A stretch of 64,000 bases of DNA, taken from Hymenobacter sp. (GTDB lineage: Bacteria > Bacteroidota > Bacteroidia > Cytophagales > Hymenobacteraceae). Below are positions 2,959 through 40,389 of this stretch, piece after piece. The DNA is taken from positions 912,814 through 976,813 of the forward strand of contig CBDFGP010000004.1 of NCBI GenBank assembly GCA_965247135.1. The letters run 5' to 3'. Position 1 is the first letter of the stretch, and the number at the start of each line of letters is the position of its first letter. The notes below the pieces were generated by a model. The model was not told where the DNA came from, did no database searches, and was given only the letters and a program-made list of their open reading frames with translations. The position numbers were made by a program, and so were the translations under genes.

Positions 2959-3232
2959 CGGCGGGGGCGGGGAAAAAAGCAAGAACGGCTTGCCGCGAGG
3001 CAGTTGGAGCGGGTTGGGGTGCGGCGGCAGGTATTTTTGCAGGGAGTTGGCGCAAGGGGCACGAGGCAACTGCTTGTTTCAGAAAACCGGGCGTAATTTT
3101 CAGCCCTCAAACGCGGGGCCAGTAGTATGCGACTGCTAAAAAGTGGTGGTGCGCTGGTTGCCCCACCCAAGCGTCTGGCGCTTACGGCAGCTCACTAACG
3201 CTAATTTCCACTCTTTTCCCCCCTCCCTTTTC

Positions 3233-6200
3233 ATGTTCAAAAACTTCTTCCCCCAAACCGCCCGCTGGGGCCGGGCGCTGCTGGCGCTGGGCCTGCTGGC
3301 CGGGCCGCTGGCCGCGCTGGCCCAACCCACCGGCTACTGCGACACCGGCCTCGGCGGCGGTTGCGGTGGCAACAACGTGACGGATGTAGCGATTGCCGCT
3401 ACCACCCTGAGCAACCCCAACATCGTTTGCAACACGACGGCGGCTTTCGATGCCTACACCATCTGGCCCGCTTCGGGCAATACCACGGCCACGCTCTCGC
3501 CGGGCGTGAGCTATCAGGTAACGGTGACAACGGATGGCATATCCATTATCTCGGTATGGGGCGACTGGAACCTCAACGGCTTGTTTGAGGCCAGCGAGTG
3601 GACGCAGGTGGCGGTTGTTTCGGGGGCCAACGCGCCCACCACCGTGACCGTGCCAGTGCCTGCTACGGCCCTGGCGGGCCTGACCCGGTTCCGGGTGCGT
3701 TCGCGCAACCAGGGCAACCCGAACGGCGACATTGATGCCTGTACCTTGTTCGGGTCGGGCGAAACCGAGGACTATGTAATCACCATTGGGCCGCCGCCGG
3801 CTTGCGCTCCGCCCATCAACCTGGGGGTGAGCAACGTGACCACCACCGCGGCCACGCTCACCTTCAGCGGGGCCAGCAACGGCACGGCCGTGGGCTACGT
3901 GGTGCAGTACGGCATTCAGGGTTTTGTGCCGGGCGGCGCGGGCAGCAATACCGTGAACACGACCAACACCTCGGTGCCGCTGACGGGCCTGACCAACAGC
4001 ACGAACTACGAATTTTACGTGACCAAAAACTGCGGCGGCGGCATGAGCAGCATCCGCAACGGGCCGTTCCGGTTTCGGACGGCCTGCGTGGCCCCGGTCT
4101 ATGCGACGCTGCCGGTGCTGGTGGACTTTGAGAACGCCTGGGTCAATGCCTGCGGCACCCGCGACGTGCCCAGCAGCAGTTGGCTGAACACGCCCATCAC
4201 GGGGAATTTGTCGTGGCGGCGCGACGACGACGGGGCCGCGGCCAACTGGACCAATCCCACGTTCGGGGCGTTCACGGTGAACGGTGCCCAGGGCCGCCAC
4301 GCGGCCCGGTTTCATGACTACAGCGCCAGCACCAACGCGGGCCTGACGGGCACCCTCGATTTGTACGTGGACCTGAGCGGCACCGGGGCCAAGGTGTTGC
4401 AATTTGACTACATCAACCCCACCGGCACCGATTCGCTGCTGGTGCAATTCTCGACCGACGGCGGCAACACTTTTGGCCGGCCGTTGCTGCGGCGGGGGGT
4501 GGGTGCCGCGTTCGGCCAGCAGTCGGTGAGCCTGCCCGCCACGACTTCGGCCACGTGCGTGGTGCGGTTTCGGGCCGTGACCGACTTTTTTGGCAGCACC
4601 GACATCGGGCTGGACAACGTGCGGCTGGCGGCGCTGGTGGGGGTGCCCGGCTGCGTGACCAACGCCGTGCCCGCCAACGGGGCCACCAGCATTCTGCGCC
4701 CCGTGACGCTGACCTGGCAGCCCACCACGGGCGTGGCCACCGGCTACGATGTATCCTTCGGCACGAGTGCCACCACGTTGGCCCTGGTGAGCAGCAACCA
4801 GCCCGGCACCAGCTACACCGTCACGGCCAGCCTGGCGGGCAACACCATCTACTACTACCAGGTGGTGCCCCGCAACAGCAACGGCCCGGCCACGGGCTGC
4901 TCGGTGCTGAGCTTCACGACCAGCAACGTGCTGACGTATTGCACCACCGGCCTGGGAGGGGTCTGCGGCACGGCCGACATCACGGATGTGGTCATTGCCG
5001 GCACCACCCTCAACAACCCCAACACGGTGTGCAACACCAGCCCAGGGGGCGATGTGTACACCAGTTGGCCCGCTTCGGGCAGCACCACCGCCACCCTCAC
5101 GCCCGGCAATGCCTACCAGGTGAGCGTGACGACGAATGGAACGGGCATCATCTCGGTGTGGGGCGACTGGAATCAGAACGGGCAACTGGAAGTGAGCGAA
5201 TGGACGCAGATTGCCACGGCCTCGACCACCGGCCAGCCCGCTACCATGACCGTGAACGTGCCCGCCAATGCCCTCTCGGGCCAGACCCTGTTGCGGGTGC
5301 GCTCGCGCTCGAGTGGCAACCCGAATGCGGCCCCCGATGCTTGTAGCCCGTTCGGGTCGGGCGAAACCGAAGACTACGTGGTGGACCTCGGTCCGCCCCC
5401 GGCCTGCGCCCCGCCCGTCAACCTGGCCATTGCCAACCTGGCCCCGACTGCGGCCACGTTCTCCTTTAGCGGCAACACCAACGGCGCGGCCACCGGCTAC
5501 GTGGTGCAGTACGGCGTGACGGGCTTCGTGCCCGGCGGCACGGGCAGCACCACCGTGAACACCACGGCCACCACCGTGCCGCTGCCCGCCCTGACACCGG
5601 GCACCACCTACCAGGTGTACGTGACCAAAAGCTGCGGCCCCGGCATGAGCAGCACCGCCAACGGGCCGTTCACGTTCACCACGCCCATCGTGAACGACGA
5701 GCCGTGCACGGCCACCGCCCTGCCCATCAACAACACCTGCCAGCCCACCAACGGCACCCTGATTAGCGCCACGGCCACCCCCAACACCGTGTTTGCCGGG
5801 GGCAACGGCGGCACCGGCTGCGGCTTCAACACCGGCGGCCCGCCCGATGTGTGGTACCAGTTCACGACCGCCGCCACCGGCCCCGCCAGCACGGCGGTGC
5901 GCATCAGCGTGACGGGCAACGCGGCCAGCGTGGTGCGGGCCTACCGGGGCGCGGCCTGCGCCGGGCCGCTCACGTTCCTGAGCTGCGCGGGCACGGCCAG
6001 CGCCACCGCCGCGCCCAACCTCGACCTGACCAGCCTGACCCCCGGCACCACTTACTACGTGCGGGTGCATACCTACAATTCCTTCGACCAGCCGGGGGCC
6101 TTCACCATCTGCGCCACGCCGGTGCCCAACTGCCCGGCCCCGGCGGCCCTCACGGCGGGCACCCTCACCAGCACCACCGCCCAACTGAGCTGGGCCGGTG

Positions 6201-7164: not shown

Positions 7165-7280
7165 CGGCGTGGTGCCACGAATTCCGCGAAGCGGTTCGTG
7201 GCACCACTAATCTTTGCCCGGTTACTGTTCAACGAGTAGTGGTACCACGAACCCCTTCGGGGAATTCGTGGCACCACGCC
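7165..7280. repeat. Inverted doublet of REP-like hairpins (GTGGTGCCACGAA...TTCGTGGCACCAC)
   Basis: Hairpin 7168-7208 and a near reverse-complement copy at 7237-7278. Confidence 0.8.
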
Positions 7281-7979
7281 CTAATACCCTTCCTTCTGAA
7301 ACCCAAACTCGCGCAGTACGCTCTTGTAGGTGTCGGGGTAGTTGGCTTTGATGAGGTTGATGAGGGCCTTGAGCACTTTCCGCAACGGTTTTTCCTGCAC
7401 GTTTTTCTTGCCCACTTCGCCCGATGCTTCGCCTTCGGTTTTGCGGCGCTGGGCCACCAGGGTTTTGTATTCGGCTTCGATGGGGGTCCAGTAGGCTTTG
7501 CCGTATTTGCGGTCGTTGTAGCCGTGGGCATCGAGGGCGGCCAGTAGCTTGGTGAGGGACTTGGCGCGGGGCTTGCGGCCGCTGGGCAGGCGGTGGTTGC
7601 GGCCTTCGGTCACGATGCCGAACTCGTCGTAATAGGCTTCGTCGGCGTCGCCTTCGTGGTCTTCGGCCAGGTAGGCCCGCACGAAGTTCAACGACTTTTC
7701 AATCATTTTGTCCAGCTCGCGCAGGCGGTTGGCCACGGGGCTGCGGTCGTTGTCGGCCGCGTCGCTGGTGTCGAGGCTGTCGTAGTAGGTTTGCGCCTGG
7801 GTCAGGAACGCGGCTTTGGTTTTCCAGAGCAAGTCGCCCAGCGCCGAGGTTTTCCAGAATTTCGCCACGTCCAGGCCCAGGGTGGCCAACTCCAGCTGCC
7901 CAAAGGGCAGGTTGGGGGTGTAGGTGGTGTCGTTGTTCGGCTGGTTGGCGGCCGAATCGCCGGAGTTGGTGGGCGACAT
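7281..7979 (-). CDS. Hypothetical, predominantly alpha-helical cytoplasmic protein (232 aa)
   Basis: Clean ORF with host-like codon usage, amphipathic helical pattern, no signal peptide, no recognised motif. Confidence 0.8.
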   Translation of the reverse strand: MSPTNSGDSAANQPNNDTTYTPNLPFGQLELATLGLDVAKFWKTSALGDLLWKTKAAFLTQAQTYYDSLDTSDAADNDRSPVANRLRELDKMIEKSLNFVRAYLAEDHEGDADEAYYDEFGIVTEGRNHRLPSGRKPRAKSLTKLLAALDAHGYNDRKYGKAYWTPIEAEYKTLVAQRRKTEGEASGEVGKKNVQEKPLRKVLKALINLIKANYPDTYKSVLREFGFQKEGY

Positions 7980-8260: not shown

Positions 8261-9142
8261 TTAGGAAAGCAGTTCAGCCAGTTGGTCTTTTTCAGTCCAT
8301 TTAACCAAGCTGTTGGCGTGCGTTCCTAAAATATCATACTGCACCCGATACCCCCCTAGTCTGCTGCCCGCACTAGTGTCGTCGATGAATCCTACTAACT
8401 TGCCTAGTGCTGACTTTTGACTGCCGTAGATTTTATGAGCAGCCTGAAAATTCATGTCAGTTCTGTTGAGGCTGTTGACAAAATGCTCTCGGTTTGAGCC
8501 GGTGATGTAGTTTATCAAATGAATGTGTCGGCTGGTACGTACCACGGCACTGAACTGAATGCTGCTACCTCGCATCACCTTTTGTTTGAAATCAACTTTG
8601 TCGGCGAAAGCATCTCTAAGGTAATGGTTAGCCTCTTGGGTAAATAGCCGCACTTGGGTAGGTTCTTCAGGTTCCTCATACAGCGAAGCTGATAAGTTCA
8701 CGGCTTGGGTAATGAACGAACTTACATCATGTATTAGGGAAGCAACCATATGGGCCTCCGTCGTTCGTTTGTAGTAGAAGGTATTACCTGAAGAATCCTC
8801 GGTTTGCTTGATATTATAGTGCTTTTGCACAAATGCGAAAGCCCGGCTGAAACACTGTGAATCCAAGTAAATTTCGTCACTCAGGTACTCATTGTTTGAC
8901 ACAAGCCCCCCATCAGTTACTACAAATCCATTTTCGCGTTTGGTTAGAAACACGGCTACAAATTTGTTCGTCACAGTGCTGTGGCAAGTAGTGATTTCCA
9001 ATGTTTGTCCGCGTTCGCGAAAACGCCAAAGTGACCGATATTCGCCTACTGTTTCTTCGAATACCGTAGACAATTCGTTAAGCAAAGTATCGAACATGGG
9101 AATTGGGGTCGGTCTGTGGGGGAAGGGAAGGAAACAATTCAT
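8261..9142 (-). CDS. AT-rich hypothetical protein resembling DUF1828/DUF1829-type proteins (likely start MFDTLL at 9097)
   Basis: N-terminal EITT...VAVFL...GFVVTDGG pattern and C-terminal G-S-x-x-F-x-x-V pattern recalled from that family; GC clearly below the flanks. Confidence 0.55.
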   Translation of the reverse strand: MNCFLPFPHRPTPIPMFDTLLNELSTVFEETVGEYRSLWRFRERGQTLEITTCHSTVTNKFVAVFLTKRENGFVVTDGGLVSNNEYLSDEIYLDSQCFSRAFAFVQKHYNIKQTEDSSGNTFYYKRTTEAHMVASLIHDVSSFITQAVNLSASLYEEPEEPTQVRLFTQEANHYLRDAFADKVDFKQKVMRGSSIQFSAVVRTSRHIHLINYITGSNREHFVNSLNRTDMNFQAAHKIYGSQKSALGKLVGFIDDTSAGSRLGGYRVQYDILGTHANSLVKWTEKDQLAELLS

Positions 9143-9671
9143 CGTCGGCCGTTACTATTTCCAAAATTGGTAAGTCGCCGTCGTGGTCCATGTTCGCTTC
9201 TTCGTAAAAATGCATGATGCAATAAACAGGGTTTGCCAATTCCTGTTCACCAGCGGTTGTTGTTAGCTTGTCGGTTTTGTACGCAAATGAGTTGCCGTCG
9301 CGGTCGAACTTTTGGAAGTGTGGAGTTTCGATTTTTTGCTCGCTTAACCGCTGGTTACCCGGCGGGTTGCGGTGGGCACGGCCTTTGGAATCGTACCGTA
9401 ATAATGGCGGAGCCATAAAAAGGTGGTCACTTAACCTGAACTTGAAAGCTTGGTTGTTGACAACACTCAATTCGGCTGCAAATTCCATTGCTGAATCAGG
9501 TTGATTGTGCTCAACTGGGAGGTAAGTTGCCATTACCCCCGGCCTACCTTTTTTGGTTGCTTTACGCGACAAAATAATGCCGGGGCCACTTGTTGATTTG
9601 GTACAAGTAAGCAGCCCCTCATAATCAGGATATTTTTCCTTTACCTCCCGGCAAACGTCAGTTTCGGCCAT
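9078..9671 (-). CDS. AT-rich hypothetical protein with RYD-x-x-G-x-x-HRNP...PHF motif (DUF6978-like), overlapping the downstream gene
   Basis: Motif LLRYDSKGRAHRNPPG...IETPHFQ; overlap suggests translational coupling to 8261-9142. Confidence 0.6.
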   Translation of the reverse strand: MAETDVCREVKEKYPDYEGLLTCTKSTSGPGIILSRKATKKGRPGVMATYLPVEHNQPDSAMEFAAELSVVNNQAFKFRLSDHLFMAPPLLRYDSKGRAHRNPPGNQRLSEQKIETPHFQKFDRDGNSFAYKTDKLTTTAGEQELANPVYCIMHFYEEANMDHDGDLPILEIVTADDELFPSLPPQTDPNSHVRYFA

Positions 9672-9762
9672 TGTATCAAAGCTGTTCGGGTGTAAGGCAA
9701 ATCAGGTTTAGCGGCAGCAAGTTAAGTAGTAATCATCGAAACGAAGTTTTGAGCGGATATCC

Positions 9763-9862
9763 TTACTCCTGCCCGGCCAGCAAATCCTCAAACGTCTGCC
9801 GCCGCCGAATCTGGCGCAGCGCGCCGTTTTCGAGCAGCACCTCGGCCGGGCGGGGGCGGCTG
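9763..9862 (-). pseudogene. Orphan duplicate of the last 100 bp of lysA
   Basis: 93/100 identical to 10637-10736; encodes SRPRPAEVLLENGALRQIRRRQTFEDLLAGQE*. Confidence 0.95.
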
Positions 9863-9863
9863 C

Positions 9864-10238
9864 TCACCGATGCGTGACGAGCAAAGTGCGCGACAATTCC
9901 ACGTAAGAATGATGGGTGAGTAGGTTCGTGAGTTGCGGCAGAAACCGGCGAAACAGTTCCAGCAAATCGGGGGTGCGGATATTGCCCGTGGACACCAGCA
10001 GCAATTTGTAGGGCTGACCGTGCAGTAAAAAACTGTTGACAAAATCAGCGTCCTTGGTAATTACGACGCGCTTTTCGGCCATCGAAAGCTGCGTTATGCT
10101 GCTGTCCTGAGTGCGGTTGGCAGCGGGCAGGTCGAGGGTGTGCAGGCAGTCGCAACCGCCGTGGAAGGCCAGAAAGCGGGCCAGTTGCCGGGGCAGTTGA
10201 GCATCGACCAGCAGCCGCAACGGTTCGGGGCGGCTCAC
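9864..10238 (-). CDS. DUF5615-family PIN-like toxin
   Basis: LLVDAQLP...D..I...EKRVVITKDADF motif; ATGA overlap with the upstream DUF433 gene. Confidence 0.88.
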   Translation of the reverse strand: MSRPEPLRLLVDAQLPRQLARFLAFHGGCDCLHTLDLPAANRTQDSSITQLSMAEKRVVITKDADFVNSFLLHGQPYKLLLVSTGNIRTPDLLELFRRFLPQLTNLLTHHSYVELSRTLLVTHR

Positions 10239-10474
10239 GAAGCCAGCCGGTACACCGACCGCACTTGCAACACCTCGGCCGCATACGCCTGGCAGGCCCG
10301 CAGGTCTTCGGCCTCCAGGTCTTCGTAGTCGGCCAGAATTTCGGCCTCCGTCATGCCCGAGGCCAGGTATTCTAGCACGTTTTGCACCGGGTAGCGCAGG
10401 CCGCGCACCGTGGGCTGCCCGTGGCAGATGGTGGGGTCGATAGTGATGCGGGGGTGCAACGCGAAAGTATCCAT
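10235..10474 (-). CDS. DUF433-family antitoxin
   Basis: RITIDPTICHGQPTVRGLRYPV...GMTEAEILADYEDLEAEDLRACQAYA signature. Confidence 0.92.
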   Translation of the reverse strand: MDTFALHPRITIDPTICHGQPTVRGLRYPVQNVLEYLASGMTEAEILADYEDLEAEDLRACQAYAAEVLQVRSVYRLAS

Positions 10475-10582
10475 TGCACTAAGGTAAGCACACGGGCGAG
10501 AAGGCGGGGCAAAAAAAGACTCGCCCTGGTACGCTGTTCAAGTGGGAAGCGTGGCGAGTACTATTGTCACAAAGGTACGGGC

Positions 10583-10634
10583 ATGTTGTGTTTCTAAAAA
10601 GTGTGGTTTTTAACACTTTTTAGAAACACAACAT
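10583..10634. repeat. Perfect 22-bp AT-rich inverted repeat just after the lysA stop
   Basis: atgttgtgtttctaaaaagtgt / acactttttagaaacacaacat. Confidence 0.85.
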
Positions 10635-10636
10635 AC

Positions 10637-11833
10637 CTACTCCTGCCCTTCCAGCAAATCCTCGAACGTCTGCCGCCGCCGAATCTGGCGCAGCTCGCCG
10701 TTTTCCAGCAGCACCTCGGCGGGGCGGGGGCGGCTGTTGAAGCTGCTGCTCATCTCGAAGCCGTAGGCCCCGGCGTTGTGGAAGGCCAGCAGGTCGCCCT
10801 CGCGCACTTCGGGCAGCAGCCGGTCCCAGGCAAAGGTGTCGGTTTCGCAGATGTTGCCCACCACGGTGTAGAGGCGCTCCGGCCCGGTGGGGTTGCTCAG
10901 GTTGCTGAGGTGGTGGTAGCTGTCGTAGAACATGGGCCGGATGAGGTGGTTGAAGCCCGAATCGACGCCCGCAAACACGGTGGCCGTGGTTTGCTTGACC
11001 ACCGCCACGCGCACCAGCAGCCAGCCGGCTTCGCTGACGAGGTACTTGCCCGGCTCGAACCAGCATTCCAGCGGCCTTCCGTATTCCTGCTCGAACCCGG
11101 CGAAGGCCGCCGCCACTTGCTGCCCCAGGGCGGCGACGTCGGTCTCGGGGTCGCCGGGCTTGTAGGGCACCTTGAAGCCGGAACCGAGGTCCAGAAACGC
11201 CAAATCGGGGAAGCGCCCGGCCGCGTCGAAGAGCACCTCCAGCCCCCGCAGAAACACGCCCACGTCCTTGATTTCGGAGCCGGTGTGCATATGCAGCCCG
11301 CGCACGTGCAGGCCGGTACCCTTCACGACCCGCTCCAGGTGCCGCAGCTGGTGAATGCTGATGCCAAACTTGGAGTCAATGTGCCCGGTCGAAATCTTGT
11401 AGTTGCCGCCCGCCTCAATGTGCGGGTTCAGCCGGACGCACACCGGGTAGCTGCCGCCAAAGGTGGCCCCGAAGCGCTCCAGCAGCGAAATGTTGTCAAT
11501 GTTGAGGTTTACGCCCAGGTCTTTGGCCTGCACGAGTTCGGCAAACGTCACGCCGTTGGGCGTGAAGAGGATGTCGGCGGGCGCAAAGCCCGCGTGTAGC
11601 CCCAGCCGCACTTCGTTGATGCTGACGCAATCCAGCCCCGCGCCCAACCCGTGCATCAAGCGCAGAATGGCCACGTTGCTCAGGGCTTTGCAGGCGTAGA
11701 AAAACCGGGTGGGGTGCCCGGCAAAGGCGGTGGTGAGCTTGTGGTACTGCCGGGCAATGGTGTCGGGCTGATAGACGTAGAGCGGGGTGCCGAATTGGGC
11801 AGCGGCGGCGAGGAGTTCGCGAGGAGGAAGCAT
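10637..11833 (-). CDS. lysA: Diaminopimelate decarboxylase
   Basis: YACKA PLP lysine, SKFGI, HMHTGS, LDLGSGF, EPGKYLV, GNICETD, GAYG motifs. Confidence 0.97.
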   Translation of the reverse strand: MLPPRELLAAAAQFGTPLYVYQPDTIARQYHKLTTAFAGHPTRFFYACKALSNVAILRLMHGLGAGLDCVSINEVRLGLHAGFAPADILFTPNGVTFAELVQAKDLGVNLNIDNISLLERFGATFGGSYPVCVRLNPHIEAGGNYKISTGHIDSKFGISIHQLRHLERVVKGTGLHVRGLHMHTGSEIKDVGVFLRGLEVLFDAAGRFPDLAFLDLGSGFKVPYKPGDPETDVAALGQQVAAAFAGFEQEYGRPLECWFEPGKYLVSEAGWLLVRVAVVKQTTATVFAGVDSGFNHLIRPMFYDSYHHLSNLSNPTGPERLYTVVGNICETDTFAWDRLLPEVREGDLLAFHNAGAYGFEMSSSFNSRPRPAEVLLENGELRQIRRRQTFEDLLEGQE

Positions 11834-11923: not shown

Positions 11924-13216
11924 TTACCCCACCACCACGCCTGCCGCCAGCGCCACCCCAATCAGGGCCACACTTGGCACCTTTTCCCAGAGCAGCACCA
12001 AGAACGTGACCCCCACCAGCAGCGGATTGAGCGGAATGACGGTAATCGGCCCGATGTGGCCCGGAAAATCCAGCAGCCGGTAGGGCAGGGGGTGGTAGAG
12101 CAGAAACGTGGCCGCGCACACCAGCCCGGCGCTCACGGCGTTGATGCCTTCGAGCGAGGCTTGCACGGCCCGGTACTGCCGCATCCGGTCCCAGAACCGG
12201 ATGACGAAGAAAATGAGCAGCGTGCCCGGCAAAAAGATGCCCGTGGCCCCCACCACCGCGCCCAGCACCATGCTCAGGTTGCCGCCGCCGGTGGGCCGCA
12301 TGGCCAGCGCCCCGATGTAGGCGGCCAGCGAGAAATTCGGCCCCGGCATGGCCTGCACCAGCCCCAGCCCCGACAAAAACTCTGGCCCCGACAGGTAATG
12401 CTTGAACTCGACGAACTCGGCAAACAGCAGCGGGGCCAGCACCTGCCCGCCCCCAAACACGAGCGACCCGTTGCGGAAAAAGTTTTCGAACAGCCGCACC
12501 GGCAGCCACTGCGTGTAGTGGCCCAGCAGCGCCGCCCCCAGCAAAATGCCCAGCCACAGCGCCCCGTTGGCCCACTGAATGCGCACCGGGTTTTTCTCGT
12601 GCACAATGGCGTGCTTGCGGTAGCGCACCGTGGTGACGGCCCCGCCCGCTACCAGCAGCACCGGCAGCACCCAGGGCAACTGAAAAAAGTAGGCCACCAT
12701 CGCCGCCATCACCATCAGCCCCACGGCGGTTTTGGTGTGAATGACCTTCTCAGAAATGCGGTAGGCCGAAAACGCCACGAAGCCCACCGCCACCGGCTGC
12801 ACAAACTGCACCAGCGCGGCCATCTTCTGCGGAGCGAGGTGGCTCAGGGTGAGGGCCGCCGTGGTCATGAGCAGCACCGCCGGGGCCGCCCACACAAACA
12901 AGGTCAGGTAGGCCAGGTTCGGCCCGCCCAGCCGGTAGCCAATCACGGTAATGGTTTGGGTCGAGGTTGGCCCCGGCAGCAGTTGGCACAGGGCCTGCAA
13001 CTCCAGCAATTCGTTGGCGCTCAAGTAGCGGCGCTTTTCTACCAATAGCCGAAAAAACATGGCCAGGTGCGCCTGCGGCCCCCCAAACGCCGTGAGGGCC
13101 AGCACCGCCACGTCCTTCAAAAAGATAATGCCCCGCACCCGGCGCGTCCGCGCCCCCCGGCGGCGCGGGGGCACGGCCAGCGAAGCCGCAGGGGCAGAAA
13201 CGGGGCTGGGTTGCAC
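11924..13216 (-). CDS. chrA: Chromate efflux transporter (CHR family)
   Basis: AFGGPQAH, CQLLPGPTSTQ, FGGGQVL, QAMPGPNFS motifs in two homologous halves. Confidence 0.93.
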   Translation of the reverse strand: MQPSPVSAPAASLAVPPRRRGARTRRVRGIIFLKDVAVLALTAFGGPQAHLAMFFRLLVEKRRYLSANELLELQALCQLLPGPTSTQTITVIGYRLGGPNLAYLTLFVWAAPAVLLMTTAALTLSHLAPQKMAALVQFVQPVAVGFVAFSAYRISEKVIHTKTAVGLMVMAAMVAYFFQLPWVLPVLLVAGGAVTTVRYRKHAIVHEKNPVRIQWANGALWLGILLGAALLGHYTQWLPVRLFENFFRNGSLVFGGGQVLAPLLFAEFVEFKHYLSGPEFLSGLGLVQAMPGPNFSLAAYIGALAMRPTGGGNLSMVLGAVVGATGIFLPGTLLIFFVIRFWDRMRQYRAVQASLEGINAVSAGLVCAATFLLYHPLPYRLLDFPGHIGPITVIPLNPLLVGVTFLVLLWEKVPSVALIGVALAAGVVVG

Positions 13217-15892: not shown

Positions 15893-17200
15893 ATGTTCGT
15901 TTCCCTCACCCGTGAATCGGTATTGCGGGCTTTGCGGCAGATAGACCGCGCCGCGCCGCTGTTGCCGCCCAGCACGGTGTACGAACTGGTGTACCGGGGC
16001 CGCCGCTACCCGCCCCGCGCCGTGGCTGCCTGGGCCTACCGCCTGACCACCAGCGACCCCGCTGCCCGCTGGCCCCTGCCCGCCGGTCAGCCCACCAACG
16101 CCGCCCTCGAAGCCCTGGACTTCACCATCAGCACCAAGCGGCCCGTGCTGGCCCCCGGCGCGGGCCACGATGCCGAAACCGCCGCCCAGCAGCAAGCCGA
16201 AGACCTCTACACCGGCCCCGATGCGCCCCGGCCGTTGGCCCGCGCCACTGCGCTGACTTTCGTGGTGGCCGAACCGCAACCGCCCTACCCTCAGCCGCCA
16301 GTTGCGCCCTACACCCGCGCCGATGCGTTGGCCGAGCTGTTCATTTCGGCCGAAGTGCTGGATGCGGCCCTGGCGGGCCTGGCCCGCCGCCGCAACCTGC
16401 TGCTGCAAGGCCCGCCCGGCACGGGCAAAACCTTCCTGGCCCGCCGCCTTGCCTGGCTCCTGCTGGGCCACCGCGACGATAGCCGGATTGAACTGGTGCA
16501 GTTCCACCCCAGCTACGGCTACGAGGACTTCCTGCTCGGCTTCCGGCCCGATGCGCGGGGTCGCTTCCGGCTGGTGCCAGGCGTGGTGCCGCTGCTGTGC
16601 CAACGGGCCGCTGCCGACCCCGAAAACCCCTATTTTCTGCTAATTGACGAGCTGAACCGGGGCAACGTAACCCGCATTTTCGGGGAGCTGCTGCTCTTGC
16701 TGGAAGCCGACAAGCGCGGCCCCGCCCACGCCCTGCGCCTGCCCTACGCTGCGCCCGACGACCCCCTGTTTTTCGTGCCCGCCAACCTGTTCGTCATCGG
16801 CACCCTCAACCTGGCCGACCGCGCCCTGGCTCCGTTGGATTATGCGTTGCGCCGCCGTTTTGCGCTGCTGCCCCTGCCGCCGCAGTTTGGCCCGGCACTG
16901 CGCGGTTTTCTGCTGGCCCGCCACGTCCCGGCCGTTGTGGTCGAGCGCGTCGTTGAGCGCTTCACCAAGCTCAACCAAACCATTGCCGACGACCCCGAAC
17001 TCGGCCCCGATTTCCTGGTCGGCCACAGCTACTTCTGCCAACCGCCGGGTGATTTGGCCAGCAACCCGGCCGCTGCCGAAACGTGGTATCAGCAAGTGGT
17101 GGCCCAGGAAATCGCGCCGCTCCTGGCCGATTATTGGCGCGAACAACCTGCAACAACAGCGGCGCAAGTCCGCAAATTGACTGAAGTTCAGCGTAGCTAA
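15893..17200 (+). CDS. mcrB: McrB-family AAA+ GTPase (type IV restriction)
   Basis: GPPGTGKT, VQFHPSYGYEDF, LIDELNRG, GTLNLADR, ALRRRF, VGHSYF. Confidence 0.93.
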   Translation: MFVSLTRESVLRALRQIDRAAPLLPPSTVYELVYRGRRYPPRAVAAWAYRLTTSDPAARWPLPAGQPTNAALEALDFTISTKRPVLAPGAGHDAETAAQQQAEDLYTGPDAPRPLARATALTFVVAEPQPPYPQPPVAPYTRADALAELFISAEVLDAALAGLARRRNLLLQGPPGTGKTFLARRLAWLLLGHRDDSRIELVQFHPSYGYEDFLLGFRPDARGRFRLVPGVVPLLCQRAAADPENPYFLLIDELNRGNVTRIFGELLLLLEADKRGPAHALRLPYAAPDDPLFFVPANLFVIGTLNLADRALAPLDYALRRRFALLPLPPQFGPALRGFLLARHVPAVVVERVVERFTKLNQTIADDPELGPDFLVGHSYFCQPPGDLASNPAAAETWYQQVVAQEIAPLLADYWREQPATTAAQVRKLTEVQRS

Positions 17201-17210
17201 CAGGCGGTCT

Positions 17211-18287
17211 GTGATTCCCCTTTCGGCCCTCTACTATTTCCTCTGCTATGCCTGGAACCGCTTGCCCGACCCGGCGCTGTTGCGGGCCACGGCGGCCACG
17301 CGCTTTCACCGGCCACTGGAGTTGCTGGCCCAGGTGTTGCTGCAAGCCCTGCGCCGCCGGTTTCGCAGCGGTCTGCCGCTCAGCTACCAAGCCCAGGAAG
17401 AAGAACTGACCAGCTTGCGCGGGCGCATCGAGCTAACGCCCTCGCTCACGCGGGGGCTGCTGCCGCAGGGCCGCGCCTGGTGCGCGTTCGACGAGTTGAG
17501 TACGGCCTCGCCGCTGCACACGCTACTGGCTGCTACGTTGGATGCATTGGCCGGGGCAGCGGGCTTGCCAATAGCCCTGCGCCGTGCGGTGCGGGCCGTG
17601 CGCCAGCGGCTGCCAACGCAGGCGGGCGCAACGCCGACTGCCGCCACGTTCCGCGCGTTGCGGCGGCAGCGGCCCGATGCCGAAGCCGCCTTTTTGCTGC
17701 ACGTGTGCGAGTTAATCTGGCAAACGGCCTTGCCTACGCCCACAGCGGGCGGGCGGGGGCGCTTCCGCGACTTCCGCCGCGATGAAGCGCTGATGGCCCG
17801 GCTGTTCGAGCAGTTTGTGCGGAATTTCTACCGCCGCGAACAGCACCGGTTTCGGGTATTTGCCGAAACCATCGCCTGGCAGGCCCAGGCCCCGCAACCC
17901 GCCGACCTCGCCCTGCTGCCCACCATGCTGACCGACACCACCCTGGAAGCCCCGGACCACAAAATCATCCTCGACACCAAATATTACGCCGCCGCCCTGC
18001 GCCCGCGCTACGACCGGCAACGCCTCATTTCCCCCCACCTCTACCAACTCTACGCCTACCTGCAAAACCAGCAGCCCGCCCCCGGCCAAGCCTTGGAAGG
18101 CGTTTTGCTGTACCCCGCCACCACCCAGGCCCTGGACCTGCGCTACACCCTGGGTGGGCACCCGGTGCGGGTGGTCACGCTCAACCTGCACCAGCCCTGG
18201 CCGGGCATTGCAGCCGATTTGCAGGCCATCATCGGCGAAGCAGCGGATGCAAAAAAGCCGCTCACCTTTCCGGAGACGGAAGGGTGA
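17211..18287 (+). CDS. mcrC: McrC-family restriction endonuclease subunit
   Basis: LFEQFVRNFY, TDTTL...IILDTKYY, LYQLYAY; immediately after mcrB. Confidence 0.92.
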   Translation: MIPLSALYYFLCYAWNRLPDPALLRATAATRFHRPLELLAQVLLQALRRRFRSGLPLSYQAQEEELTSLRGRIELTPSLTRGLLPQGRAWCAFDELSTASPLHTLLAATLDALAGAAGLPIALRRAVRAVRQRLPTQAGATPTAATFRALRRQRPDAEAAFLLHVCELIWQTALPTPTAGGRGRFRDFRRDEALMARLFEQFVRNFYRREQHRFRVFAETIAWQAQAPQPADLALLPTMLTDTTLEAPDHKIILDTKYYAAALRPRYDRQRLISPHLYQLYAYLQNQQPAPGQALEGVLLYPATTQALDLRYTLGGHPVRVVTLNLHQPWPGIAADLQAIIGEAADAKKPLTFPETEG

Positions 18288-34974: not shown

Positions 34975-35055
34975 AGGTAGGGTATTTTCGTTCGTCAAAA
35001 AAATAAACTACCTGCGAGGTAGGTTATTCGGGCCGAAGAAAAAAATAACCTACCT
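34975..35055. repeat. Two tandem palindromic units AGGTAGGTTATT-N-AATAACCTACCT (42-bp period), site 1
   Basis: Units 34975-35013 (imperfect) and 35017-35055. Confidence 0.9.
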
Positions 35056-39340: not shown

Positions 39341-39430
39341 GGTAGGTTATTTTTGCTCACCAAAAAAATAACCTACCTGGCAGGTAGGTTATTCGGGCCC
39401 AAAAAAATAATACCCTACCTCATGCCCCGC
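39341..39430. repeat. Two tandem palindromic units plus a copy of the first three codons of the HTH gene, site 2
   Basis: Units about 39341-39378 and 39382-39420, followed by catgccccgc as at 40390-40399. Confidence 0.9.
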
Positions 39431-40101: not shown

Positions 40102-40350
40102 GGCGGTAGTTTATAAAAGGGTAAACGATTGAGCACTGCAAAGGTAAGCACTCGTGTGGCCCTAACGGGGGGCTGGCGCAGGGAGTTCAGAGGGGCGGAC
40201 ATATTCCGGGGGTAGCGAACCAAATATACCCGCAGGAAGCAAGAAAAAAAACGTTTCAATCAAAAACCTTAAAAATTCATTGCCGACGGCCAGGACCCGC
40301 GCCCGGTCGTCGGCAACAGCTTTTGGGGGTTTCGGGGCAAACTACCCGCC

Positions 40351-40389
40351 AGGTAGGTTATTCGCGCCCAAAAAAATAATAACCTACCT
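40351..40389. repeat. Palindromic unit, site 3, ending 1 nt before the HTH start codon
   Basis: aggtaggttattcgcgcccaaaaaaataataacctacct. Confidence 0.9.

Follow-up and report, generated by a model that had tools for sequence, protein, structure and literature searches.

Organization of the lysA locus

The DNA considered here (the window, a 64,000-nt stretch of a Hymenobacter sp. genome, assembly GCA_965247135.1, contig CBDFGP010000004.1, positions 912,814 to 976,813) carries, downstream of the diaminopimelate decarboxylase gene lysA, a predicted toxin-antitoxin (TA) pair of the DUF433/DUF5615 type that is bracketed by two copies of the 3' end of lysA. One copy terminates the intact gene and the other, hereafter the orphan tail, lies behind the toxin gene. 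The main features are listed below in the direction of transcription (L081 and L083 are metagenome contigs carrying related sequences).

10637-11833, minus strand: lysA, intact, encoding a 398-aa diaminopimelate decarboxylase (Pfam Orn_Arg_deC_N and Orn_DAP_Arg_deC; NCBIfam TIGR01048)
10637-10736, minus strand: working lysA tail, last 33 codons, ...ENGELRQ...LLEGQE, stop codon TAG; 98/100 identical to the single tail of L081
10507-10575, minus strand: native lysA-downstream spacer with a T-run and a TAccTTTG box; homologous to L083 ~745-820
10235-10474, minus strand: DUF433 antitoxin candidate, 79 aa (Pfam E 1.2e-24)
9864-10238, minus strand: DUF5615 PIN-like toxin candidate, 124 aa (Pfam E 9.5e-19)
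9860-9867, minus strand: joint TGAGCAGC, i.e. the toxin stop codon TGA plus GCAGC, as read from the sequence
9763-9862, minus strand: orphan lysA tail, 33 codons, ...ENGALRQ...LLAGQE, stop codon TAA, without frameshift or private mutation

LysA scores 373 bits against the NCBIfam equivalog TIGR01048 (cut-off 297.9) and its best protein matches, 84-98% identical, are all named Hymenobacter. Exact-protein look-ups of LysA and of the toxin of the window returned no record. Counted from the stop codon, 9763-9862 and 10637-10736 form a direct repeat of 100 nt with 7 mismatches (93% identical), the two copies being separated by 774 bp; the repeat search itself reports 9759-9862 versus 10633-10736 (104 nt, 92% identity, spacing 874). 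The longest identical block within the repeat is 30 nt, and its 39-nt core has exactly two occurrences in the window and none in 100 shuffles. Read in the lysA frame (minus strand), this 100-nt sequence corresponds to the last 33 codons including the stop, and the two tails encode near-identical stretches of 32 residues of the decarboxylase. Four differences are silent or exchange one stop codon for another (CCG/CCC, CTC/CTG, TTT/TTC, TAA/TAG), and the others make two Ala/Glu differences (GCG/GAG, and GCC/GAA, which involves two bases). The toxin stop codon occupies 9864-9866 and the homology of the orphan tail begins at 9862, leaving 1 nt between them. The initial annotation had described this repeat, its mismatches and codon changes, and the 1-nt gap; the repeat search, the codon comparison and the coordinates confirm each of them. 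Contigs from an independent public sequencing run (X1) span both junctions with 0 mismatches and an even depth of 31-36x, which indicates that the structure is not an assembly artefact.

The start of the toxin candidate overlaps the stop of the antitoxin candidate by 4 nt. Comparison with L083 gives ratios of nonsynonymous to synonymous divergence (dN/dS) of 0.08 for the DUF5615 gene and 0.19 for the DUF433 gene, values that point to purifying selection on both; TA activity is predicted from the sequence. Most homologues of the toxin in Hymenobacter, at 73-94% identity, are full-length and of exactly 124 aa, and the stop codon of the toxin in the window thus appears to be native.

The orphan tail as a functional allele

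Each of the 7 base states by which the orphan tail differs from the working tail is also found, at the corresponding site, in the functional lysA tails of 7 Hymenobacter relatives. The pool of base states supplied by these tails comprises 53 of 300 possible changes, and the probability that all 7 orphan states would fall in it by chance is ~5e-6 for random changes and 3e-5 if codon positions are fixed. Furthermore, the protein P0044 and the LysA encoded at the locus L007 end with ...ENGALRQIRRRQTFEDLLAGQE, as the orphan does. These data agree with the initial proposal that both tails have been shaped by coding constraint.

An origin of the orphan by neutral decay of a local duplication, which the initial annotation had named as a refuting condition, is excluded. 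The synonymous divergence (pS) between the window and L081 is 0.159, from which ~8 private changes are expected in a neutral relic of 100 nt dating back to their split; the orphan has 0. Since all 7 differences are states of functional alleles, the orphan is not a decayed copy, and the lack of any private change or frameshift indicates that it left a working gene recently. The orphan tail is hence a second functional allele of the end of lysA. No strain with the orphan sequence as its sole tail was found, the closest DNA matches being 93% identical (L081, i.e. 93/100, the same value as between the orphan and the working tail of the window) or 85-89% identical (L007, L167 and L169). The empty-site strain with a tail matching 9763-9862, for which the initial annotation had called, was thus not recovered, although proteins with the residues of the orphan exist.

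A joint shared by two lineages

The closest toxin in databases (94% aa identity) is encoded on L083 and L084, two contigs that carry the same sequence and come from two samples. The window, from 10462 to 9761, is 87.6% identical to L083 through the DUF433 gene, the DUF5615 gene and into the lysA tail. The joint is also the same, with 18 nt from the toxin stop codon to GG as in the window, 14 of which are identical by manual count. The tail of L083 is decayed, has a 1-nt insertion and belongs to the allele type found in the relative L082 (...TWEDLLEGQE). Behind the orphan tail of L083 and L084 come a spacer homologous to 10507-10575 of the window and then an AbiD gene; the spacer therefore lies before the TA pair in the window and after the orphan tail in these contigs. 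Because the native downstream DNA of lysA follows the orphan of L083, the orphan appears to be the old end of lysA. The TA pair together with a replacement tail thus appears to have been placed in front of the original lysA end. This arrangement upholds the part of the initial annotation according to which the cassette arrived with its own lysA tail; the crossover within lysA that it also invoked is undemonstrable.

Another arrangement was examined in relation to the genes that follow the orphan tail in the window:

8261-9671, minus strand: low-GC two-gene cargo behind the orphan tail, delimited by the GC profile (ORF197, 9078-9671; ORF293, 8261-9142)

As the orphan allele is phylogenetically odd while the working tail matches L081, and as the cargo starts a few bases past the stop codon of the orphan, the orphan could have come with this cargo, i.e. 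a donor lysA-ORF197/ORF293 fragment starting 100 nt inside lysA would have been joined behind a resident TA pair. This has little likelihood, because L083 and L084 share the toxin-to-tail joint but have different DNA behind the tail. A second public run (X2) also argues against it: the contig that joins toxin and orphan (9807-10419) has a depth of 27 and continues to the left in two ways, one being that of the window (depth 7.3) and the other an unrelated low-GC sequence that starts from 9806/9807 (depth 6.6). The toxin-orphan contig, being four times deeper than the orphan/low-GC contig and deeper than either of two differing left flanks, indicates that the orphan travels with the TA pair. 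In the X2 variant, the orphan tail is cut after ...LRQI, left of 9807, and the sequence passes from ...TGTTTTGAAAATGAACGTTATCATCGGCCA directly to GAATCTGG, which constitutes another rearrangement inside the tail.

The joint and its resemblance to a hairpin element

Of 15 close relatives located away from lysA, 11 have a conserved hairpin element, hereafter H, 7-25 nt behind the toxin stop codon; its sequence is (A)AGCTTC-CCAGCCGCTGCCGCCCCGGGAGCGGCTGG. H itself is absent from the 64-kb window, but the end of lysA includes a look-alike:

10705-10744, minus strand: site S, the lysA stretch AGCTTCAACAGCCGCCCCCGCCCCGCCGAGGTGCTGCTGG, which resembles H by local alignment and inside which the 100-nt repeat starts

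The alignment of H on lysA spans -108 to -68 relative to the end of the gene, which corresponds to site S. The local alignments of S with H have a shuffle p<=0.008 for 6 of 8 H versions, and S is the top match for all 4 H versions tried against 6392 overlapping 80-nt windows (both strands, 128 kb). In addition, the 8 nt of TGAGCAGC recur in lysA 12 nt upstream of the start of the repeat. The location of the joint in the best H look-alike of the window suggests that the joint was guided by short homology. The initial annotation had invoked an illegitimate joint downstream; a joint at a short similarity is retained, but it does not appear to be random. The present comparison adds two points to it: this coincidence of the joint with the best look-alike of the cassette's own hairpin, and the identity of the orphan as the original end of the gene, in a structure that two lineages have in common.

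The resemblance between H and S would also fit with an intragenomic origin, in which unequal crossing-over between sister chromosomes (H with S) duplicates the tail, the spacer and the TA pair in tandem, after which other cargo replaces the second TA pair and one of the tail alleles is swapped by ordinary allelic recombination. The interval is often remodelled and an allelic exchange in lysA is plausible. This scenario nevertheless seems unlikely: it involves at least 3 steps where one suffices, the orphan of L083 is followed by the spacer and AbiD and not by a second TA copy, and the tails differ only by states of functional alleles, a result that duplication alone does not give.

Absence of an integrase

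Pfam scans of the ORFs and of the flanking genes reveal no integrase in the interval or within ~10 kb. The genes found in this ~10-kb neighbourhood encode NusA, a type IX secretion system (T9SS) surface protein, ChrA, a DCC1-like protein, a dioxygenase, McrBC, a protease and TonB. No recombinase is encoded in the variable intervals of L081, L082 and L083, except for an IS630 transposase in L082. None of the viral contigs carries the tail. Neither L081 nor L082 has a second lysA tail, and none was found within 8 kb of any of the 82 other lysA loci, the window being the sole case among 83.

A direct repeat of the 3' end of a gene around foreign cargo is the classic signature of integrative islands, and the 30-nt identical block could hold a core site. 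The two tails could then be the attL and attR sites of an island remnant that has lost its integrase and most of its sequence and that would be mobile only in trans. This is improbable given the absence of any recombinase in the interval, in the ~10-kb surroundings and in the intervals of the relatives (the IS630 transposase of L082 apart), the absence of a second tail at the 82 other loci and in viral contigs, and the distance of only 774 bp between the repeats.

The statement of the initial annotation that the cassette has no integrase accordingly stands. Its extension to a recombinase-free way of stacking cargo is consistent with this locus, but it is unsupported as a general route, only one of the 83 loci showing it. 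No other repeated gene tail was found when the window was scanned; the remaining repeats are domain repeats and intergenic elements. Three copies of an intergenic repeat of 80 nt that contains palindromes (GGTAGGTTATTTTT...AAAAAAATAACCTACC) lie at 34976-35055, 39341-39420 and 40310-40389. Elsewhere, the two DUF3800 genes located around a cassette array on the contig L086 were considered as a second case of a duplicated tail and rejected, as the proteins are unrelated.

A model for the formation and spread of the structure

A single recombination between two lysA-bearing molecules, with a joint between H and S and without any site-specific recombinase, is the best explanation of the structure and, on balance, a somewhat probable one. 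We infer the order of the events, the donor and the type of recombination (RecA-type or homology-facilitated) as follows. The DUF433/DUF5615 cassette would once have been located downstream of a lysA gene, with H behind it. During recombination of this molecule with another one bearing lysA, the left side would pair normally within lysA and, on the right side, H would pair with its look-alike S, ~100-108 nt before the lysA stop codon of the other molecule. The product would consist, in this order, of the lysA body, the donor tail, the spacer, the TA pair, the H/S joint, the recipient's own tail and the recipient's downstream DNA. Thus, lysA would be kept intact and its old last 33 codons would be left behind the toxin gene. 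Compared with a lysA gene that has no such cargo, the structure is an 874-bp insertion at -100 with homology on both flanks, which could then spread among related lineages by ordinary homologous recombination with a right-hand crossover inside the 100-nt orphan tail. Such a crossover leaves the allele of the recipient, which would explain why the orphan is fresh and lineage-specific here and why another allele is found in L083 and L084.

Three observations bear on the age of the joint. L081 retains a remnant of the DUF433 gene whose synonymous divergence from the window gene is 0.24, i.e. no younger than lysA; the window and L083 lineages have a common joint; and their orphan alleles differ. 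Together, they indicate that the joint was made once and that the TA pair has resided at lysA for longer than the freshness of the orphan suggests. The joint was therefore made earlier and would probably have reached the window genome by ordinary homologous recombination. This does not agree with the joint as a fresh event in this genome, since the same joint occurs in a lineage whose TA pair is 12% diverged and L081 keeps the antitoxin remnant. No excision product and no skip of 874 bp was found in the public runs, which were searched as contigs only, and contigs drop rare variants.

Several points weigh against this explanation. Divergence from L081 amounts to 7% for the DUF433 gene (compared with the remnant) and to 2% for the lysA tail, so that more than one event is needed. 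The lysA gene has 2 mismatches to L081 in its last 240 nt versus 60 in its first 957 nt, an excess of similarity with a naive P of 1.3e-4 that rises to ~0.03 once the lower local divergence is allowed for. L081 is the nearest relative along the whole of lysA, without any change along the gene, and no mosaic breakpoint in lysA could be placed by comparison with the relatives. The toxin stop codon lacks the usual spacer before H, with 1 nt in place of 7 or more, which makes the exact crossover point uncertain (H/S or TGAGCAGC). Only three close relatives are available, and the L083 and L084 contigs end just upstream of the antitoxin gene. Lastly, homology-facilitated illegitimate recombination (HFIR), the nearest known process, presumes that the host takes up DNA by natural transformation or an equivalent, and the present case is known from sequence alone.

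The lysA-orf232 interval and its surroundings

The two close metagenome contigs, L081 (lysA 95% identical at the nucleotide level) and L082 (87%), allow the limits of the variable DNA to be defined by the following genes.

11924-13216, minus strand: chrA, upstream of lysA
7281-7979, minus strand: orf232, far flank of the variable interval, 85-87% nucleotide identity in L081 and L082

In both contigs, chrA precedes lysA and orf232 marks the far limit of the interval, with 3 extra genes between chrA and lysA in L082. All sequence between lysA and orf232 differs among the window, L081 and L082. The interval of L081 contains a low-GC gene of 184 aa, then the DUF433 gene (2470-2691; 93% identical over 184 nt to the window gene) without any toxin gene, then a DUF1493 gene. 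The homology of this DUF433 gene stops ~40 nt before its stop codon, and low-GC genes lie on either side of it. The interval of L082 contains the IS630 transposase gene and two small genes. The lysA-orf232 interval is thus, in this clade of Hymenobacter, a small hotspot that takes up variable cargo. Synteny with 11 further Hymenobacter species is limited to lysA itself, so that no empty site can be derived from them.

The low-GC cargo behind the orphan tail, whose two genes overlap, has a GC content of ~45% versus ~65% around it, and is absent from L081 and L082. ORF197 and ORF293 have weak matches only (PADLOC PDC-M24A, E 6.6e-5; Pfam DUF6978, below the cut-off; HORMA, E 0.005), and the pair may be a defence module. 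A 15-nt inverted repeat around this cargo (8228-8242/9755-9769) was discarded because it is at chance level (~0.4 expected). Between the cargo and orf232, the segment 8057-8231 consists of a 42-nt unit repeated 3-4 times in tandem, whose copies also pair as inverted repeats; in L081, the equivalent position is occupied by a repetitive GC-rich sequence (3050-3260). Two related hairpins that resemble repetitive extragenic palindromic (REP) sequences, GTGGTGCCACGAATTCCGCGAAGCGGTTCGTGGCACCAC and GTGGTACCACGAACCCCTTCGGGGAATTCGTGGCACCAC, lie between the gene of the T9SS-tailed surface protein and orf232 (7170-7268). On the other side, an AAA_5 ATPase gene and a McrBC-family gene (15893-18287) make up a McrBC-type restriction system ~5 kb from the lysA hotspot.

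The sequence between lysA and the antitoxin gene includes a further element:

10580-10637, no strand assigned: AT-rich palindrome with a 25-bp stem that abuts the lysA stop codon (inverted repeat, 96% complementary)

The stretch that includes it (10490-10645) has a fold z-score of -7.1. The palindrome is absent from the spacer of L083 and L084 and is therefore an insertion relative to them; no further copy occurs in the window, in the 170 loci fetched or in viral contigs. The TAccTTTG box of the adjoining spacer resembles the known Bacteroidota -7 consensus, TAnnTTTG, and is a putative promoter lead. Scans of the interval for sigma-70 promoters and terminators returned nothing, the models being ill-suited to Bacteroidota.

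Hairpin-bounded cassette arrays elsewhere in Hymenobacter

The same TA family occurs in arrays of small cassettes with a spacing of 175-1056 nt on other Hymenobacter contigs (L086:4299-6433, L088:4683-7292, L097:1183-3875, L085:1388-2127 and L092:3327-5462). A conserved hairpin, CCAGCCGCTGCCGCCCC(C)GG(G/T)AGCGGCTGG, lies between successive cassettes, with 4 copies each in L086 and L088 and 7 in L097. The cassettes encode DUF6883, DUF3800, DUF4926, SUKH-3 immunity and Abi_C proteins. The arrays of L086 and L088 are located downstream of nrdA, the gene of the large subunit of ribonucleotide reductase. No integrase gene was seen adjoining the arrays in the 10-12 kb available. These arrays could be integron-like or REP-like.

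It is conceivable, though doubtful, that the TA pair came from such a hairpin-bounded Hymenobacter cassette pool (arrays of 3-7), moved by an undescribed hairpin-specific recombination system, and that the duplication of the lysA tail was a by-product at a look-alike site within a housekeeping gene. Still less probable is a direct action at lysA of a dedicated recombinase that recognizes H, as in integron-like cassettes, and that used S as a secondary site. H does separate small defence, immunity or TA cassettes in other Hymenobacter arrays and S is its best look-alike in the window, but a cassette circle that entered at S by one crossover would split lysA instead of duplicating its tail; moreover, no integrase lies beside the arrays over the length available, and the window lacks H.

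Comparison with known systems

Islands that lack an integrase but lie at the 3' ends of genes are represented by the cis-mobilizable elements of the ICESt1 family. As at lysA, the cargo of integrase-borne islands lies between direct repeats derived from the 3' end of a conserved gene, which remains intact. Unlike them, the lysA structure has no integrase, its site is not used recurrently, and its repeats lack a short identical core with diverged arms. It also differs from an integron cassette, as no integrase was found and H is absent from the window; a canonical attC site was not sought with a dedicated model. The cargo itself corresponds to known DUF433/DUF5615 type II TA pairs, with two small overlapping genes that encode the expected Pfam domains, show purifying selection and often occur in mobile contexts. 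It departs from them in that the antitoxin gene persists without a toxin gene in L081. Campbell-type insertion-duplication, in which a suicide plasmid carries the 3' fragment of a gene, leads to an identical layout with one fixed junction. In contrast to such plasmids, no circular intermediate was seen here, and one would first arise by recombination between the repeats.

According to the passages of PMC5361080 and PMC3240628 that refer to it, HFIR is known in Acinetobacter, Streptococcus pneumoniae and Pseudomonas stutzeri. As in HFIR, a homologous gene would serve as the anchor on one side and the other side is joined through a short similarity, without any dedicated recombinase. However, HFIR uses 3-10 nt of microhomology while the look-alike found here extends over 25-40 nt with ~80% identity; furthermore, the anchor crossover is undemonstrated and the joint is inherited or shared between lineages rather than fresh. 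A second parallel is C-terminal displacement at rhs, contact-dependent inhibition (CDI) and type VI secretion system (T6SS) effector loci, which leaves orphan 3' ends and for which HFIR has been proposed (Jackson 2009; Kirchberger 2017, PMC5361080). In both cases, the incoming module brings its own 3' end and the old end is left as a downstream orphan. At rhs, CDI and T6SS loci, the displaced ends encode variable toxin domains accompanied by their immunity genes and accumulate in arrays, while a single orphan is present at lysA. The lysA case further involves a housekeeping enzyme with near-identical ends, a TA pair as cargo and an unrelated cargo behind the orphan.

The lysA structure is thus a recombination scar of a kind already known from other loci, and it leaves current models unchanged. 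The observation made in the initial annotation holds, and its recombination model is upheld in large part. It offers a clean and datable example of cargo that would have been added behind a housekeeping gene without any mobile-element enzyme. As the spare gene end comes with the incoming DNA, the gene would never be broken; the joint would be steered by a chance look-alike of the hairpin that flanks the cassette, and the displaced tail would serve both as a clock and as a record of the previous allele. The same logic has been proposed for rhs and T6SS loci, and its apparent operation on a TA pair at lysA suggests a general, low-frequency route that would feed small defence hotspots.

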